From contig CAYXCH010000021.1 of assembly GCA_964463705.1 (NCBI GenBank), forward strand, positions 1,162 through 65,161: 64,000 nt of DNA, given 5' to 3'. Below are positions 1 through 44,570 of this stretch, piece by piece. Source of the DNA: an uncultured Pseudobdellovibrionaceae bacterium. GTDB lineage: Bacteria > Patescibacteriota > Minisyncoccia > Moranbacterales > GCA-2747515. Within the stretch, counting starts at the first letter, position 1, and every line of letters starts with the position of its first letter. The position numbers and the translations under genes are program-made. Below the pieces are notes generated by a model. It had not been told where the DNA came from, did no database searches, and saw only the letters and a list, made by a program, of their open reading frames with translations.

Positions 1-2535
1 ACTTCTTCCTGGCTCCCACTTGCCAAACAACGCCATGCTTACTAGATCGTTTGTGCCTAAATCAATTCCAATTCTTAAATAATTGTTAGATTCGCGCAAC
101 TTGGAATTTATATTCTCGTTAAATTCTTGCAATTGCTGCTTGACCTCGTCTTCATCTGCAAAACGAGGATTAAATTGTTCAGCCGGCTGATTTTTTGTAT
201 ACATGAAATGTATATGCATTCTTGATCTGGCGTGCCTGCTTTTTGCGTGTTGTTTTTCTTCTTTTTTAGCTTCAAAATACAGCGAAACCTCGGGGTTTAA
301 TCGTTTTTTATCAATTAAATCTGATCTAATTTTGAGTAACAAATCTTTGAATTCATTTGTAAATCTTTTTGCGTAAGAGATGTTACGAGAAAAATCATAA
401 CCTCCTACCTTCCCAAAATATGCTAGCTCGTCTTTAATAGAATATGAATTTTGATTTTTTAATCCACTATTATACTCTGAAAGCAATCGCATCAATTCTT
501 GTTTGTTGACATGTATTTTTTGCAAAAAGTAGAAAGTTGACTCAAGATCTCGTCTAAATTCTTTTAATGTTTTGTGTGGTTTGTTTAAGATGTTTTGCAA
601 TGAGTTTTTTAACTCTTGAGGCAGCTTTATTGTTGGTGTTTGTTGTTGTGATCCCCTTTTTTTCTTTTTGTTTTCACGCTCTGACCTTTTTGTTGTGTTT
701 TTTATCTTTTTGTATACTTTTGAGGTTACTCTGATTCTTGGGTTGATTTGTAATTTATACAAAAATTTTAGATAAATTTTGATTGTATTAACAACACTTT
801 CTTCTTTATTGTTGTCTGTATTTAATTCTGATAAAAGCTCTGGTGCATTTTTTGCTATAAATTTATTCTTTAAAGCTGACAGAGTAAGAGAATAAAGTAT
901 CATCAATGTAAAATCTGCATTTTTGTTTCGATGCGCGGTTTCTTCAAGAGTTTTTAACTTTTTGAAAGTGAAATCCTTTATTTTGTTCTTTGGAACAAAT
1001 AACGCATGCACATTTTTACAATCAAACTCTTTACCTTTATCAAACCCTAACAATGCCCAATGGGTTAGAAAAAACCTTGCTTTATCTAAACTCTTTTGCT
1101 GAGTAATAAGCCCGCCATTTATTTGAGCTATTATATTTTTTAGAAAAATGAAATCACTGGGCAATCTACGCAATAAACCTGTATAAGCTTGACCGGCTGC
1201 TTGCTTATATTGATTTGTTCCACAATAGGACTCTTCACTGCTATTTTTTTCTTTTTGTTTTTCTTCAGAAACAAAAGCCTTAAATTTATGATCCAACAAA
1301 TCAGGTATGTACCTCCTAAATTTAGATTTAGAAAAATCTTCATGGAGGTTTATAATTTTATTAAGATTATTTAGCTTGTCTTTGTTTTGATCAAGACATT
1401 TTTGAAAATTATTAAACAACACATTCTTATCAACATTTTCACCATATAATTTATATTCTTGCTTAATAAAATCGTTAAATAAATTATCAATATCTTTTTT
1501 TAATTTATTTTTATAAAATTTTCTTAAACAAACAGCCGTCTCCAACAATGGAGTATCAAATATACCTGCGCAACCATTTTCTTGCGCCCATGTTGTGTAC
1601 CCTACATTTTTTAAAATTAAATTTAGGTTGTCTATATTTGCTAATAATTCTTTTTCTCGTTCGTTTTTAGTGTTCTGTTTACGCTTTTCTAAATAAATAC
1701 GAGTCGCAAGTCCCCTTTTACATTCAATCTCTTTAATTTTATTCTCAAGCTCTTTAGGCGTAAAAGACTTGCTGACAGTATACCTATTAAAACTGGCTCT
1801 TAACAATTCTTTTTTATCTTGAAGCACAGTAAAAAGTTTGGTTGTTTGCGCATCTAACTTTTGCGCAGTTATTGTAAAGTCCGACCACTGCTCTGATTGA
1901 GTTAATTTGATTGATTCAATTAATAGTTGCAGAAAAGATATTAAACTTAACCTTCTTTTGTTGCTAAATTCTATTTTGGGGCGTTGCGTAATGAGTTTAA
2001 CCGCGTCTAAAACTCCAGATACCGCGGGTTGAGATTTTGATAGTTCTTCATCAAGAATCTTTAATACAGTTTTGTCATTTTCTTCATCAGCTCTTGCATC
2101 TTTAATTAAATTAGCGACTTGTTTTAAAATCTCAATAAATTGCTCGCGCTCAAAATCTTTTAATTGAGAGAACAAGACATCTCTTTTTGAAGATTGCGGA
2201 TTGATTTCGCGCAACAGTTTGCGCTTAATATTTGGCGATTCTATATTTAATTTGGCAATTGTATTTTGATTAGAATCTATATCTGTTTCATCTTTTCCAC
2301 TCTTTTTTGCTTGTTCAAGATTGTTTTTGTATTCGTGAATTTTTTGCAAATCGCTTATAAAGCTGATTAAAAAATCATGTATAGATGTAAGTTTGTCTTT
2401 TAACTGCTCTGCCTCTTTTTTCAGGTCATCTTGAACTATTTTGTTTAAATTTAGATTCTCAAATATGCTTATAACGCTCTCATCATATGGCAAATACTCA
2501 AACTTAAGCGCTGATATGTATTCATATTTTTTCAT
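1..2535 (-). CDS. Second Cas12a-family (Cas12a-paralog / Cas12a2-like?) effector, partial (C-terminus beyond window start); not in supplied ORF track
   Basis: Hand translation of the reverse complement. ATG at 2535-2533 lies 1 nt after the cas12a stop (2537-2539); an alternative in-frame ATG at 2574-2572 would overlap cas12a by 38 nt. Scanning the forward-strand triplets in this frame I found no TTA/CTA/TCA (reverse-complement stops) from 1 to 2535, so I believe the frame is open, but this was done by eye. The other forward frame is full of stops. N-terminus MKKYEYISALKFEYLPYDESV (WED-I-like, compare Cas12a KTLRFELVPHE). About 830 aa of helical K/N-rich sequence follow, including a basic low-complexity stretch KKIKNTTKRSERENKKKKRGSQQQ. 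RMHIHFMYTKNQ sits in the position of the Cas12a FFFHCPITINFK pre-crRNA-processing motif. FNENINSKLRESNNYLRIGIDLGTNDLVSMALFGKWEPG matches the Cas12a RuvC-I block [30 protein letters not shown]. The sequence then runs off the window. Confidence 0.6.
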   Translation of the reverse strand, partial: MKKYEYISALKFEYLPYDESVISIFENLNLNKIVQDDLKKEAEQLKDKLTSIHDFLISFISDLQKIHEYKNNLEQAKKSGKDETDIDSNQNTIAKLNIESPNIKRKLLREINPQSSKRDVLFSQLKDFEREQFIEILKQVANLIKDARADEENDKTVLKILDEELSKSQPAVSGVLDAVKLITQRPKIEFSNKRRLSLISFLQLLIESIKLTQSEQWSDFTITAQKLDAQTTKLFTVLQDKKELLRASFNRYTVSKSFTPKELENKIKEIECKRGLATRIYLEKRKQNTKNEREKELLANIDNLNLILKNVGYTTWAQENGCAGIFDTPLLETAVCLRKFYKNKLKKDIDNLFNDFIKQEYKLYGENVDKNVLFNNFQKCLDQNKDKLNNLNKIINLHEDFSKSKFRRYIPDLLDHKFKAFVSEEKQKEKNSSEESYCGTNQYKQAAGQAYTGLLRRLPSDFIFLKNIIAQINGGLITQQKSLDKARFFLTHWALLGFDKGKEFDCKNVHALFVPKNKIKDFTFKKLKTLEETAHRNKNADFTLMILYSLTLSALKNKFIAKNAPELLSELNTDNNKEESVVNTIKIYLKFLYKLQINPRIRVTSKVYKKIKNTTKRSERENKKKKRGSQQQTPTIKLPQELKNSLQNILNKPHKTLKEFRRDLESTFYFLQKIHVNKQELMRLLSEYNSGLKNQNSYSIKDELAYFGKVGGYDFSRNISYAKRFTNEFKDLLLKIRSDLIDKKRLNPEVSLYFEAKKEEKQHAKSRHARSRMHIHFMYTKNQPAEQFNPRFADEDEVKQQLQEFNENINSKLRESNNYLRIGIDLGTNDLVSMALFGKWEPGRS

Positions 2536-2536
2536 A

Positions 2537-5500
2537 CTACTTTTTGTTACTGTTAATTTTATAAAGATATTCATCCCAACGATGTTTGTCTATTTTAAGA
2601 TCCGGCTTTTCAGAGCTTGTGCGCACTTCTTGAAGGGCTATGTATCCTTTGCGTGCTATGTTGTATGCGCCAAGATCATCTCCGTTTTTGATAAATGCAT
2701 CTTCTTTGCGTGTATCAAACCCGCATAATGGACACTGTACAAAGTCTGCTTCTTGCTCTTCGCCTGCGCGGTAGTGATTGCGTATTTGCAATACACGATT
2801 TAGGAAATACACAAATGCCTTCCATGCTGTTGCGTATGTGCGTTCATCTTTTTTAAGCAATTCTGGCAACAAATTATCACCACTGCTAAACTCTAATTCA
2901 AAACCTTCAAAAGCAGAACTAAATCCTATAAGCTGACTTTCTGTCGCACCATTGCCAAAAATTGCCTCAAATGCCTTGGCAAAATCATCAGCAGTGAGAG
3001 ACAGAGTGGAGCGTTTGACACTATCCCACACCAATCTATCTACACGAGATGTAATAGTTACTTCTGAACCATCAAATTCTCGTGTATATGTGAGTACAAA
3101 TGCATTACGATTTGTATCATACACAATGGATTTAAAGTGTTTGTTTAAATCTGATATTACTTGGTCTATGTTTTTATACTTGATGTATACATCTTTGCGC
3201 CATCCACAGGTAGGACATGTCTGTGAAGTGTATGCCGGGTCCAAGAAGAAGGTAATACCATGTTGCCCCTGAAGGTCTTTGAGAGAAAGTGTGCCTCGCT
3301 TCTCTTTAGTACACACGAGTTGTGCCGCATCAAATGCATACTGCTGATCTTTGTCTATGATGAGCTCAAGTTTTTGCAGAAGTGCCTTTTGGAACTGCTG
3401 ATACACGCTCTTCTCAAATTGTCCGCCGCGTTTTTGGATAAAGCGGAATGCTAAATTCTCAAGCACAATAATCGCATCATACTCAAGCGCCTTTGAGACT
3501 ATAAAGTGGATAACATGAGAAAGATATCCTTCTTTGAGCTTGGTAATATTCCCGACAGAGCGCCATGTTTTGCGTGCCTCAAGACGCTCACGCTCACGCT
3601 TTTCCAAAAGAGCGTGATAGTCTGTACCGTGTATAGTATTGAGCGAACCCGAGTCAATATGGTTGCCGTCTTTATCAATGAGTGACCAATACAGAAGATG
3701 CTTCTCACCGCGGTCAATACCGAGTATCGCGCATGGCTCTTGAAGGAGCGCTTCGTTTACATGAGTCGTAAATGTTTTGTCGTCTGTGGCTCCTTTATGT
3801 GCGTTAATTTGCACCGGTATGTGGAAAATGAGCTTCCGCTGTGTGTATCGGTGTGCATCATATACCGGCGCATTATCTCTGCTTACTTCTTGTGCTCCAT
3901 TGCTAAGCATCTTCCTTTTTTGGTTTTCACAAGATATATCACGGAAGAAGATTTTACCATCTGCCAAGAGCATATACGGTTGCGGAGTCTGCTTTATATT
4001 TTCATCTGAAAAGAGTGTTTGCCAGATAATCGTATGTACGTTACGTTTTCCGTGTCCTTTACCACAGAGATCTTTGTTACAAATTTTAAAGAGATACAAA
4101 TTGCCACTTTTAACATGCTTCATCAACGCCTCCTCATTAACATTGGCAAAGTAAAAACCCTTCTCTTGTTGCAATGCTGCAATACATGCTTCACGGAATG
4201 CACGTTTAGTTTCAAAGGCTTTGACAACAACACTACGTAATGATGGATAATCATCAAGATATTGAGGGCGCACATTGGTTAAAAATTCTATGCCCTTCGC
4301 GACCCCTTCAGCATCATTCATGTCACTAAATTTTGCACCGTAGTGGTTGAGAAATCCTTTTCCAACCAATGTTTTAAAATCAAGCGTCTTAAGCACCATC
4401 TTTTGCCAAGCACTTTCACTGTCCGTATACATTTTCTCAAAAGAGAAGTTGTTACGCAGGACGCCGAGATATATATCATCTTCATGACGCAAAATCACCG
4501 ACTTTTTGTTAGCAAGTTGACTCTCACTCCATCCACCAAGAAATTGCGGAGAAAAATACACACGCACCTCCTCCTCTGTAGCCAGCTCTTTTGTCAGATA
4601 GTTGCGTGTCTTGTTAAATATTTTTTGAACGCGAATATCCTCAATGAGATATGCAAATTGCTCCCATCTTGCATAGAAATCCTGATCTTTCTCTTCTGCA
4701 GAGAGCTCCTTGAGCACATCAAAATGTTTACTTCCCTTCTTGTCGCGCACACGAAATGTGCGCGCAAGGCGAGACACATCAACAGCCCATTCCAAATAGG
4801 TACGCAAAGCAGCGCGCGCCTCGTCATCAAGGCTACCTTCACGAACTTTCTGCACCGCATTGTCAAAGCCATCAGCAAGCATGCGCACATCCTCAAGCGG
4901 ACGCAACACCTGCTCAATATTATCGCGCCAGCGAGCAAGAAACTCATTCCATGTTGTCGTGCGCCCATCTGCAAGACGGAAGGCATCACCATACTGCTCT
5001 ATATACTCTTTCACCGCTTGTAAGGTTGTGAACCTCTCTTTTTTCTTAAGAACATCGTTAAGTGCCGCCCACTCACTCAACACTGCTTGCGCAACAGCGC
5101 GCAACGATTGTTTGCTGATATAGATTTTTGAAATGTCATATTGATCAATGGTATCAAAAAATGTACTAAAAAACTCTCGCGCTGTGTCGTATAACTCTGT
5201 TATGCGTGGCTTTACTTCAGAGAGCATTGCATAAAGCTCTTCGTCTGACTCTATAGTCTCATAACGCACATCGCGCTCTGTGCCAATTTGGTTGTAGAGC
5301 GTTTGCACCAACGGCAAGCGTTGAGCATGTGTTTGATTGTATGCATTAATTTTATTATTAATCCCCTCTGCACGCACATCACCAACCTCTGCCGCACCGC
5401 CACCGATGATGGTATTATATGTATCTATTCCTTCTTGTGTTAAGACCTTATTATAGAACTCCGGCTTGAAGATTTCTCGTTCATCATCTGTAAGTTCCAC

Positions 5501-6190
5501 TTTCCCGTCAAGCGTACGCTCATAAAGGAGTGCATTCTTTGCAAATATGCGGAGATTATCATCAATCACCCGCGTGGCAACCTGCCCGTGCTTGCCCTCA
5601 TCGCCAAAGTAGTGACCGCGATTGCCCAAGAGGTCATAAAGTTGCGTAAACATACCGCTAAATGCATTGAGGTGGCGCAACGCCTCTTGGTCATTTTCAT
5701 ATTTTCGCTCAAGAATTTTATAAAAATCTTTACTGAGAAGCTTCTTCTGTGAGACCTCTTCTCCATTATACTCGTATGTAAAAGTTTTAACATCATCGGC
5801 AAGCTCTTTGCGGATACGCGCAAGAAGTTGCCACATTTCAGAGATTGTCCTACTGCGCTGTGTAGCATTTTCCGCATTGAGTATTTTCCGTTCCTGCTCT
5901 ATGACAGAGCTAATATCTTCAACACTCAATTGCACTTCTTGTAATGCGCGTGTAATAAAATCAACAATCGCAATGTCCCAGTACTTTTTAATATGCGGAC
6001 GCGCCTCTTGCCGTGCCTGCTCCTCAGGGAAAATCTCTCTTGCTGAAGCTGCGTCAAAATTGATGTATTTACGTGTTGCTTCATGTGGCACAAGCTCAAA
6101 GCGCAGGGTTTTAGTGACGGAGAATTTATTTGTAAATGCACGAAAACTTTGCGAACGAGTAGACGTCGCGGATGGAGATGTCGTAGACAT
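2537..6190 (-). CDS. cas12a: Cas12a (Cpf1) type V-A CRISPR effector nuclease, 1217 aa
   Basis: N-terminus FTNKFSVTKTLRFELVPHEATRKYI (Cas12a WED-I signature). WED-III-like FHIPVQINAHKG. RuvC-I LGIDRGEKHLLYW (Asp codon at 3713-3715). RuvC-II IVLENLAFRF. LYLFKICNKDL...KGHGKRNVHTIIWQTLF (compare Cas12a LYLFQIYNKDF...KGRPNLHTLYWKALF). FLDPAYTSQTCPTCGW (compare Fn YVPAGFTSKICPVTGF). RuvC-III NGDDLGAYNIARKG (compare DADANGAYHIGLKG). CxxC pairs at nt 3206-3217 (CPTC) and 2723-2734 (CPLC). Confidence 0.9.
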   Translation of the reverse strand: MSTTSPSATSTRSQSFRAFTNKFSVTKTLRFELVPHEATRKYINFDAASAREIFPEEQARQEARPHIKKYWDIAIVDFITRALQEVQLSVEDISSVIEQERKILNAENATQRSRTISEMWQLLARIRKELADDVKTFTYEYNGEEVSQKKLLSKDFYKILERKYENDQEALRHLNAFSGMFTQLYDLLGNRGHYFGDEGKHGQVATRVIDDNLRIFAKNALLYERTLDGKVELTDDEREIFKPEFYNKVLTQEGIDTYNTIIGGGAAEVGDVRAEGINNKINAYNQTHAQRLPLVQTLYNQIGTERDVRYETIESDEELYAMLSEVKPRITELYDTAREFFSTFFDTIDQYDISKIYISKQSLRAVAQAVLSEWAALNDVLKKKERFTTLQAVKEYIEQYGDAFRLADGRTTTWNEFLARWRDNIEQVLRPLEDVRMLADGFDNAVQKVREGSLDDEARAALRTYLEWAVDVSRLARTFRVRDKKGSKHFDVLKELSAEEKDQDFYARWEQFAYLIEDIRVQKIFNKTRNYLTKELATEEEVRVYFSPQFLGGWSESQLANKKSVILRHEDDIYLGVLRNNFSFEKMYTDSESAWQKMVLKTLDFKTLVGKGFLNHYGAKFSDMNDAEGVAKGIEFLTNVRPQYLDDYPSLRSVVVKAFETKRAFREACIAALQQEKGFYFANVNEEALMKHVKSGNLYLFKICNKDLCGKGHGKRNVHTIIWQTLFSDENIKQTPQPYMLLADGKIFFRDISCENQKRKMLSNGAQEVSRDNAPVYDAHRYTQRKLIFHIPVQINAHKGATDDKTFTTHVNEALLQEPCAILGIDRGEKHLLYWSLIDKDGNHIDSGSLNTIHGTDYHALLEKRERERLEARKTWRSVGNITKLKEGYLSHVIHFIVSKALEYDAIIVLENLAFRFIQKRGGQFEKSVYQQFQKALLQKLELIIDKDQQYAFDAAQLVCTKEKRGTLSLKDLQGQHGITFFLDPAYTSQTCPTCGWRKDVYIKYKNIDQVISDLNKHFKSIVYDTNRNAFVLTYTREFDGSEVTITSRVDRLVWDSVKRSTLSLTADDFAKAFEAIFGNGATESQLIGFSSAFEGFELEFSSGDNLLPELLKKDERTYATAWKAFVYFLNRVLQIRNHYRAGEEQEADFVQCPLCGFDTRKEDAFIKNGDDLGAYNIARKGYIALQEVRTSSEKPDLKIDKHRWDEYLYKINSNKK

Positions 6191-6256
6191 AAGAGTGTAT
6201 AATAAAACTTTTACGTCTTTTCTTTGCGTGGTCGCCGAAAAGAAAAGAAATCATCA

Positions 6257-6293
6257 CAGAATTATACTCTATAATTCTGTAGAATATTTCTAC
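6257..6293 (-). promoter_or_regulatory. Putative cas12a promoter/operator: perfect 10-bp inverted repeat CAGAATTATA-ctc-TATAATTCTG containing TATAAT on both strands, followed by GTAGA-atatt-TCTAC hairpin
   Basis: Read directly from the sequence. Located 67-103 nt upstream of the cas12a ATG (6190) in the 357-bp intergenic region. The -10-like TATAAT is embedded in the palindrome. Confidence 0.3.
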
Positions 6294-6314
6294 CCTTTTC
6301 TTTGTATAATGAAC

Positions 6315-6390
6315 AAAAAACCTCCCGCAAGGCGGTGCGACCACGCACATTGTAGTGCCTCACGAGAGGATTTTTATGTGCGTGGTCTCT
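6315..6390. terminator. Compound GC-rich hairpins: 12-bp inverted repeat GACCACGCACAT (6339-6350) / ATGTGCGTGGTC (6376-6387) enclosing CCTCacgaGAGG-ATTTTTAT; CCGCaagGCGG flanked by an A6/T6 run
   Basis: On the minus strand this reads hairpin(s) followed by UUUUUU, so it is a likely intrinsic terminator for the upstream minus-strand gene (6548-7102), insulating cas12a. On the plus strand the inner hairpin is also followed by a T-run. Confidence 0.4.
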
Positions 6391-6547
6391 TACAGTATAC
6401 ACGGGAATAGACTATGCTGTCAAAAAATAATATACCTCGAGACCGTTGTCTCTTAGAGGGCTGTATTTTTTAACGGTTTCTTGCCCGGTAATGGCGAAGC
6501 TCCTCAGATCTGTGTATTGCGTATCAGCGTATATATGTCAATACCTC

Positions 6548-7102
6548 TTATGGTGCAAATGTTAATGCAAACAATGCAATGCTCAGTAACAATAGTGTTC
6601 CAAGAATGTAATCGGCAATGTGTTGCGCCCATATATATTGTGGTGGCGTAACAGCATCTTGTGTGTATAACAAGCGGATTCCGTCTGCGTCAATTTCTCC
6701 TCGCGTGTAGCGCTCCATGGCATCAATGCGCCGACGCATGCGACGTTCCAATGCTCGCGCCGTCCGTGCTGTAGATGGTGGTGTCAAAACCAAAATGTGC
6801 ATAATGCGTACAACGGAGACAAATACTGTTGCTAAGGTTGTCCATAGTGTTGCACGTGCCAATGTAACATTCAGTGCAATCATGTAATCAAAAAACAGCG
6901 CCGAAGCAATGAGCAATATCAGTGCCCCACTCAGTATAATCACCGTGAAGTATTGCGTATTGCGTGTGTACGCTCGTCGGGCGTGCGTGTGTGTTGTATG
7001 GAGGCGCCGGATATGTTCTTTCAGTTGTTTGCGATGTTCGTCCAGTGCGCCGAACGCATCAGATTGTGTCATAGGTTCCCGTGTTATCCGCATAGTATAC
7101 AC
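6548..7102 (-). CDS. Hypothetical membrane protein (two hydrophobic segments)
   Basis: ORF with host-like GC content. Hydrophobic stretches ILSGALILLIASALFF and GTLLLLSIALFALTF. No recognisable family. Confidence 0.45.
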   Translation of the reverse strand: MYTMRITREPMTQSDAFGALDEHRKQLKEHIRRLHTTHTHARRAYTRNTQYFTVIILSGALILLIASALFFDYMIALNVTLARATLWTTLATVFVSVVRIMHILVLTPPSTARTARALERRMRRRIDAMERYTRGEIDADGIRLLYTQDAVTPPQYIWAQHIADYILGTLLLLSIALFALTFAP

Positions 7103-42848: not shown

Positions 42849-44372
<1,524 letters not shown>

Positions 44373-44570
44373 AAAGCGATACCGTTTTCAGCAACCGATG
44401 CTCGCTTCCACATCGGGCAAGTTTCCAACGGAAACTTCGGATACGCGATACTGTCGTTGCCATATCGGCGTGTCTCGTGTCGCTTGGCACGAGACGTTTT
44501 CTTATGAAAACCGACAACTGCCGTGTTACTGTGTAACACAATGAAAGTGGTCCGTGCTCACAGTCTGTCA

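Follow-up and report, generated by a model that had tools for sequence, protein, structure and literature searches.

A Cas12a orthologue with two CxxC pairs flanking its Nuc domain, encoded beside a divergent Cas12a3-like gene

A stretch of 64,000 nucleotides from contig CAYXCH010000021.1 of GenBank assembly GCA_964463705.1, which we call the window, encodes on its minus strand a 1217-amino acid (aa) protein that profile matches and a predicted fold identify as a true Cas12a, the effector of type V-A CRISPR systems, and not as a Cas12a2. The protein carries two CxxC pairs, C992/C995 and C1153/C1156, one on each side of its Nuc domain, and its gene is followed by a second large open reading frame (ORF), hereafter the partner gene. 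Taken as a whole, the data are very probably best explained by a bona fide, early-branching type V-A Cas12a that has kept an ancestral ribbon of four cysteines (Cys4) and holds its Nuc domain within the ribbon loop. A first-pass annotation, made from the letters alone, had singled out this ORF and quoted a series of motifs from it. The ORF and all of these motifs are indeed found at 2537..6190 of the minus strand, whose translation places the start of KTLRFELVP at residue 27, LYLFKICNKD at 698, NVHTIIW at 717, IDRGE at 825, VLENL at 909, TSQTCPTCGW at 988, FVQCPLCGF at 1150 and DLGAYNIARKG at 1172. Coding by the plus strand over the same interval was considered and ruled out, as its translation is full of stop codons.

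Membership in the Cas12a family is directly supported by profile comparisons. The NCBIfam equivalog model TIGR04330 (cas_Cpf1) matches the ORF with 469.7 bits (cutoff 300, E 2.2e-140), the Cas12a profiles of PADLOC reach up to 742 bits, and Pfam recognizes REC1, REC2 and RuvC_1. When sequences of solved structures are compared with the ORF, the best match is ReChb (9e-104), after which come Lb, As, Fn, Mb and Lb2, and every significant match is to a Cas12a except for one weak local match to SuCas12a2 (8d49, E 0.0028). Domain content is likewise observed directly. Specifically, residues 986-1165 scanned alone give a Pfam PF18510 (NUC) match of 27.2 bits (cutoff 25, E 6.6e-6) that spans residues 993-1155 and profile positions 3-150 of 162 (148/162). 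The bilobed architecture of Cas12a is recovered as well. An AlphaFold2 model of residues 18-1217, computed from an input alignment of 60 sequences, has a predicted local distance difference test (pLDDT) value of 88.2 and a predicted template modeling (pTM) score of 0.81. Its top Foldseek match in the PDB is the LbCas12a ternary complex 5xuu (E 5e-60, template modeling (TM) score 0.75), and Cas12a structures account for 50 of the best 50 matches.

The functional residues follow the same pattern. The D/E/D residues of the RuvC active site are separated by 85 aa (I-II) and 260 aa (II-III), which are Cas12a-like spacings, and both R1137 of the LQIRN motif in the Nuc domain, at the place of the conserved QxRNS arginine of Cas12a, and H790 are invariant in 60 Cas12a sequences. 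We take H790 to be the equivalent of Lb H759 and Fn H843. Near it, a lysine is present in INAHKG, and the third processing-lysine position aligns to ALLQE. Between RuvC-I and RuvC-II, the model predicts a single long helix of bridge-helix length. With the canonical enzymes from Lb, Fn and As, the protein has in common not only family and fold but also the catalytic D/E/D, the Nuc arginine, the processing histidine and the domain order WED, REC1, REC2, PAM-interacting (PI), WED, RuvC-I, bridge helix, RuvC-II, Nuc and RuvC-III, where PAM is the protospacer adjacent motif; identity to these enzymes is 23-26%. We propose that the enzyme would itself process its CRISPR RNA (crRNA) and cut PAM-flanked double-stranded DNA with its single RuvC site. 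When 1.84 billion cluster representatives were searched exhaustively with HMMER, 1328 relatives were recovered, including 781 at E <= 1e-30, and the nearest of the 1328 are at most 47% identical to the protein, which is a member of a deep, little-studied branch of the Cas12a family.

The first-pass annotation had entertained a second identity for this gene, namely that it is the Cas12a2-type member of a tandem pair. Such a member would be an RNA-targeting nuclease with collateral activity, in which a zinc ribbon stands where Cas12a has Nuc. The CxxC...CxxC arrangement does resemble the ribbon of Cas12a2, and the weak SuCas12a2 match noted above extends from RuvC-II to the first cysteine pair. 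More broadly, Cas12a2, Cas12a3 and Cas12a4 resemble this protein in having a four-cysteine ribbon between RuvC-II and RuvC-III and related WED and RuvC regions. However, in SuCas12a2 (D848/E1063/D1213) the bridge helix gives way to an insertion domain and Nuc to a compact ribbon, whereas here a Nuc domain of ~150 aa sits between the two knuckles, RuvC-I and RuvC-II are 85 aa apart rather than the 215 aa that accommodate the insertion domain in SuCas12a2, and the predicted bridge-helix-length helix occupies the position of that domain. The Cas12a2/Cas12a3/Cas12a4 group as a whole has the compact ribbon (~47 aa) and the insertion domain, in contrast to the full Nuc and the Cas12a motif spacing seen here. 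In addition, a profile of two published Cas12a2 proteins yields 23 bits spread over six fragments, compared with 470 bits for the Cas12a equivalog, and none of the 50 top Foldseek matches is a Cas12a2. Finally, the downstream partner, and not this protein, matches the Cas12a2/Cas12a3/Cas12a4 group and takes the Cas12a2/Cas12a3-like role. The Cas12a2 identity is thus almost certainly wrong.

The cysteine pairs themselves deserve closer consideration. The protein has 10 cysteines, four of which make up the two CxxC pairs, 157 residues apart. In a simulation that scattered 10 cysteines randomly over 1217 positions, 0.2% of 200,000 trials produced at least two CxxC pairs (a chance probability of 0.002). 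In the AlphaFold2 model, C992/C995 come after strand ITFFL and C1153/C1156 come before the RuvC-III helix, and the 10-residue blocks that hold the first and second knuckle have pLDDT values of 92 and 94, respectively. Because knuckle 1 lies past the last RuvC strand and knuckle 2 lies before the RuvC-III helix, the pairs are predicted to lie one on each stem of the Nuc domain. The earlier statement that they flank Nuc is accurate, since they are located at its entry and exit, which are the positions of the zinc-ribbon knuckles of TnpB and Cas12 proteins. A sub-threshold match to the Pfam family PF07282 (Cas12f1-like_TNB) at residues 982-1001 (20.5 bits, cutoff 26.3) covers the first knuckle alone.

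Of the solved structures aligned with HMMER, ReChb, AmCas12a, Lb2Cas12a and AsCas12a each lack cysteine at all four positions. Their first site reads TSKIDPxTGF and their second site is a serine-proline segment (DYIISPV, DYISSPI, YINSPV), such that the canonical S-P-V segment is the aligned counterpart of C1153/C1156. Fn-type enzymes keep the first cysteine alone (TSKICPVTGF, for example in representative P0111). The contention that well-known Cas12a proteins are without the cysteine pairs is therefore upheld, both for As, with none of the four, and for the Fn type, with one.

To place the trait in the wider family, we surveyed 151 near-full-length sequences, comprising those among the best 150 matches together with four earlier hits. 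The four alignment columns read C-C-C-C in 32 sequences (21%), C-T-S-x in 13 Fn-like sequences and D-T/S/R-S-x in the remaining 106 (the D type). Three of the 32 Cys4 sequences were misaligned by MAFFT and were confirmed by a regular-expression check. The pairs are all-or-none, in that no sequence among the 151 has one CxxC pair without the other (both, first only, second only and neither: 32/0/0/119; Fisher p = 1.7e-33, without a correction for phylogeny). Moreover, the four cysteines are invariant in 32/32 Cys4-type proteins despite a mean column identity of 30%, and the other invariant positions in the same 32 sequences include the catalytic D/E/D, R1137 and H790. This conservation and covariation are observed directly. 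It could be argued that the four cysteines are products of chance or relics, neither metal-binding nor functional, given that canonical Cas12a functions without them. Their low chance probability, their invariance at ~30% identity, their all-or-none occurrence and the YTSQxCxxCG form of the first knuckle, which is that of the TnpB/Cas12f TNB domain, make such an explanation very improbable.

Cys4-type proteins also occur outside this set of near relatives. A separate sample drawn from GTDB species genomes comprised 80 Cas12a loci, of which 76 could be typed; 2 of these (~3%) are Cys4, one from a Muiribacteriota metagenome-assembled genome (MAG) and the other from a gammaproteobacterial MAG. 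A further example is KaCas12a (PIW96672.1, Candidatus Kaiserbacteria), from the sequence set of the Cas12a3 paper, which reads TSKTCPECGF ... INCPCCGF. No literature discussion of Cys4-type Cas12a was found, although Zetsche 2015, Makarova 2015 or Shmakov 2015 may mention it. The first-pass annotation had allowed that many canonical Cas12a proteins might already carry both pairs. No structurally characterized Cas12a does so, but 21% of the nearest representatives, ~3% of the genome sample and KaCas12a do, and thus the four cysteines mark a sizeable sub-lineage rather than a singular protein. The Cys4 state is a recurrent minority trait of Cas12a that apparently has not been discussed before. 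As a separate observation, Saccharibacteria and other Patescibacteria account for most of the nearest Cas12a loci in GTDB genomes.

How might the four cysteines act? Both their all-or-none covariation and the location of the knuckles at both stems of an insertion argue for a convergence of the four sulfurs on one metal. We hypothesize that the Nuc domain of ~150 aa is an insertion in the ribbon loop, with C992-x2-C995 at its entry and C1153-x2-C1156 at its exit. Most likely, a single Zn2+ ion held by the four cysteines would staple both Nuc stems onto the surface of the RuvC core, in a manner analogous to TnpB and Cas12a2 with their compact ribbons. In canonical Cas12a, this zinc staple would have been replaced by D/T/S side chains. 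The Nuc domain itself may have grown from the loop of the ribbon.

The distribution of the trait over the family bears on the suggestion, made in the first-pass annotation, that the protein is ancestral-like. In a midpoint-rooted neighbor-joining (NJ) tree, Cys4 sequences form a basal ladder and also occur singly within D-type clades. Overall, the 32 Cys4 sequences split into 9 pure clades, and this scatter points to repeated loss of both CxxC pairs together. We also used eight published sequences of Cas12a2, Cas12a3 and Cas12a4 as the root of an NJ tree (68 bootstrap replicates). In this tree, the nine-member, all-Cys4 clade to which the protein belongs is sister to all other Cas12a, the next branches are rich in Cys4 sequences, and the seven-member core of the clade is recovered in 100% of replicates. 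All of the outgroups, Cas12a2, Cas12a3 and Cas12a4, carry the ribbon, and TnpB has a CCCC finger at the same RuvC insertion point. Two representatives, P0014 and P0017, keep the short loop length of the Cys4 type while their cysteines are replaced by D..T and S-P-x-E-P, a state that looks like an intermediate stage in these alignments. Canonical Cas12a proteins have gained about five further residues past S-P-V. The ribbon in the outgroups, the all-or-none pattern and the first branching of the clade make the ancestral-like label plausible. An ancestral ribbon that was retained here and lost repeatedly elsewhere is the simplest reading of these sequences, which the NJ tree is too weak to settle.

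Several points weigh against the reading of an early-branching Cas12a with an ancestral zinc ribbon. Firstly, bootstrap values are 69% for monophyly of the nine-member clade and 50% for its basal position. Secondly, zinc binding and the proximity of the cysteines in three dimensions are features that we infer, as is DNA targeting. Thirdly, the PI region (about 4160-4600, minus strand) is short and gives no Pfam match. K548 of AsCas12a aligns to Q558 (GGWSESQ; window 4517-4537, minus strand), and KTLVGKGF contains the equivalent of K607; we presume these equivalences in part from AsCas12a numbering. The KTLVGKGF variant of the PI region is common to a few other representatives (P0021 and P0014). 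Given Q558 at the K548 position and a short PI region without a Pfam match, the PAM of this Cas12a may differ from TTTV. Lastly, no CRISPR array, Cas12a-type repeat, cas1, cas2 or cas4 was found in the window, and the readable sequence ends 3 nucleotides (nt) past the partner gene, leaving the source of guides for both effectors unseen.

To our knowledge, TnpB and every Cas12 type other than Cas12a have a zinc ribbon at the place that Nuc occupies in Cas12a. This Cas12a joins both in one protein, with Nuc nested in the putative ribbon, and so would fill a gap in Cas12a evolution. Its likeness to the TNB domain of TnpB and Cas12f (Pfam PF07282, formerly OrfB_Zn_ribbon) consists of a CXXC...CXXC arrangement between RuvC beta5 and alpha4, although the TnpB knuckles (C331/C334/C351/C354) are ~17 residues apart and those of this protein are 157 apart with Nuc between them. 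Relative to canonical Cas12a, it has cysteines at C992/C995 in place of D/T and at C1153/C1156 in place of S-P-V plus ~5 residues, its PI region is shorter with Q for K548, and no array or adaptation genes adjoin its gene within 64 kb. KaCas12a, P0008, P0009 and other Cys4-type proteins have the same CxxC pairs around Nuc, but they are at most 47% identical to it, a value reached by P0008 and P0009, and a Cas12a3-like gene, not cas4/cas1/cas2, comes next after its gene. We view the protein as an informative evolutionary intermediate and not as a new kind of system, and these findings leave the general understanding of type V-A systems as it was. A Nuc domain stapled by zinc could affect stability and the loading of the target strand, and this would be relevant to engineering.

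The partner gene is the second subject of interest at this locus. A tandem pair had been posited in the first-pass annotation, and the second large ORF does start at 2535, 1 nt past the cas12a stop codon. The full partner of 1230 aa can be read from European Nucleotide Archive (ENA) contig ERZ27262694 k141_432271 (L001:13656-17348), which ends 3 nt past the stop codon. Its RuvC-like residues are D825/E1108/D1216 and its compact zinc ribbon comprises C1182/C1185/C1196/C1201. Conventional searches return little. For the partner, Pfam, NCBIfam and PDB sequences yield no match, a phmmer comparison with eight published proteins of the Cas12a2, Cas12a3 and Cas12a4 types yields none either, and there is no relative in a word-indexed search of 5.8 billion proteins with the whole protein or with its C-terminal 426 aa; the same word-indexed search with the Cas12a as query found 5 distant Cas12a relatives and no more. 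Two scans of Joint Genome Institute (JGI) metagenomes returned nothing that would extend the locus past the partner gene.

More sensitive profile comparisons reveal the affinities of the partner. With hhalign, it is linked to Cas12a from the bridge helix to the first knuckle (88% probability). The PADLOC profile PDLC01232 matches it end to end with 166 bits; the same profile gives 1105 bits with Ba1Cas12a3, 547 with BdCas12a3, 291 with Ba3Cas12a2 and 127 with ApCas12a4. A profile of 5 published Cas12a3 proteins gives 132 bits (E 9.5e-43) in one domain over hidden Markov model (HMM) positions 5-1126 of 1137, whereas a Cas12a2 profile gives 12 bits and a Cas12a4 profile gives no match. The block LDLTTAKVI..NGD..TY.KLK is common to the partner and Cas12a3, and overall identity is ~20-22%. 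Cas12a3 is further marked by a transfer RNA (tRNA)-loading domain and by cleavage of tRNA CCA tails when triggered by RNA. The tRNA-loading residues K881, K885, R902, Y922 and N924 of Ba1Cas12a3 give no reliable alignment, even among published Cas12a3 proteins. On the strength of the Cas12a3 profile matches, the pair comprises cas12a and a very divergent gene for a Cas12a3-like effector, and the 1217-aa ORF is the Cas12a member of this pair.

Cas12a2 and its relatives are known to occur in tandem with cas12a beside a shared array. By analogy, the 1-nt gap and the co-transcribed appearance of the pair suggest that this locus is a two-effector system like the cas12a-cas12a2 tandems, and its pairing of cas12a with a divergent Cas12a3-like gene would extend that theme. 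A cas12a-cas12a3 tandem is absent from the locus table of the Cas12a3 paper. These considerations lead to a tentative joint proposal, which we think is more likely to fail than to hold in all its parts. Cys4 Cas12a, with this clade at its base, may be the earliest-diverging lineage, in which Nuc was inserted into the loop of a TnpB/Cas12a2-like ribbon and from which the zinc site was later lost repeatedly, and the locus may be a natural cas12a-cas12a3 tandem served by one shared array. If this is true, a DNA-cutting effector would be paired with a divergent effector that may cut tRNA tails.

A typical Cas12a locus has an adjacent array of ~36-nt repeats ending in UCUACU-N-GUAGAU, usually along with cas4, cas1 and cas2. 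In three relatives within the clade, P0009, P0012 and P0082, cas12a is followed by an ORF of ~180 aa, cas1 and cas2, and the P0009 locus includes an array of 18 repeats whose 36-nt repeat, GTCTAATCCTTATATAAAATTTCTACTTATGTAGAT, ends in AATTTCTACTTATGTAGAT, the classic Cas12a handle. These V-A-type loci and the P0009 array support crRNA-guided DNA targeting in the lineage. At the window itself, GC content is ~31% in the partner gene, ~43% in cas12a and ~49% in the housekeeping flank from about 7000. The lower GC of both genes suggests that the two were acquired horizontally, as an island adjoining uppS.

Could the pair be an orphan, acquired horizontally without an adaptation module or array and now silent, decaying or non-immune, though Cas12a by descent? 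The lack of an array, cas1, cas2 and cas4 in 64 kb is in line with this alternative, as are the housekeeping flanking genes (uppS, polyprenyl synthase, SMC, rnc and nusB) and the drop in GC from flank to cas12a to partner. The relatives P0008 and P0010 also have large unknown ORFs downstream of cas12a in place of cas4/cas1/cas2. Nevertheless, both ORFs of the pair are intact with all catalytic residues conserved, the usual site of a Cas12a array, downstream of the partner gene, lies past the readable end of the contig, and arrays are frequent contig break points. We regard an orphan effector as unlikely. As to the ORFs of these two relatives, that of P0008 (47% identity) is at least 138 aa (L005:9274-9687) and that of P0010 (39% identity) at least 636 aa (L006:4369-6276). 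Each occupies the usual cas4/cas1/cas2 place and is cut by a contig end, and neither has significant BLAST similarity to the partner or a match in Pfam or PADLOC.

Table 1. Features of the cas12a gene, its upstream region and the partner gene, in window coordinates.
Feature	Position	Strand	Basis or remark
cas12a ORF, 1217 aa plus stop codon	2537..6190	minus	ORF calling, profile matches, AlphaFold2
Putative first zinc knuckle TSQTCPTCGW (residues 988-997; C992, C995)	3200..3229	minus	directly past the last RuvC beta strand
Nuc domain between the knuckles (residues 998-1149), including the LQIRNH arginine R1137	2744..3199	minus	Pfam PF18510
Putative second zinc knuckle FVQCPLCGF (residues 1150-1158; C1153, C1156)	2717..2743	minus	just ahead of RuvC-III
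RuvC-I motif LGIDRGE, catalytic D826	3704..3724	minus	D826 invariant in alignments
RuvC-II motif VLENL, catalytic E911	3452..3466	minus	E911 invariant in alignments
RuvC-III motif DDLGAYNIARKG, catalytic D1171	2645..2680	minus	D1171 and G1174 invariant
WED-III segment FHIPV, H790	3812..3826	minus	H790 aligned with the Cas12a crRNA-processing histidine
Partner gene, N-terminal 845 codons in window	1..2535	minus	starts 1 nt past the cas12a stop, leaves the window
Upstream intergenic region	6191..6547	minus	promoter-like site, stem-loops, palindrome; fold z-score -3.5
Promoter-like site	6423..6394	minus	upstream of cas12a
12-bp stem-loop GACCACGCACAT...ATGTGCGTGGTC and terminator-like hairpin with U-run	6305-6395	minus	
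Perfect palindrome ACAGAATTATA-GAG-TATAATTCTGT overlapping TATAAT	6280-6256	minus	nearer the cas12a start codon

The intergenic region upstream of cas12a gives no match in Rfam. Its elements could be a small RNA or an upstream terminator, together with an operator at the cas12a promoter. Further upstream, between uppS and cas12a, lies a 184-aa ORF (6548-7102, minus strand) that Pfam, NCBIfam and PADLOC all leave unmatched. Elsewhere in the window there is a complete bacterial 16S ribosomal RNA (rRNA) gene (42851-44374, minus strand) and no 23S rRNA gene, which indicates that the rRNA genes of this genome are unlinked.

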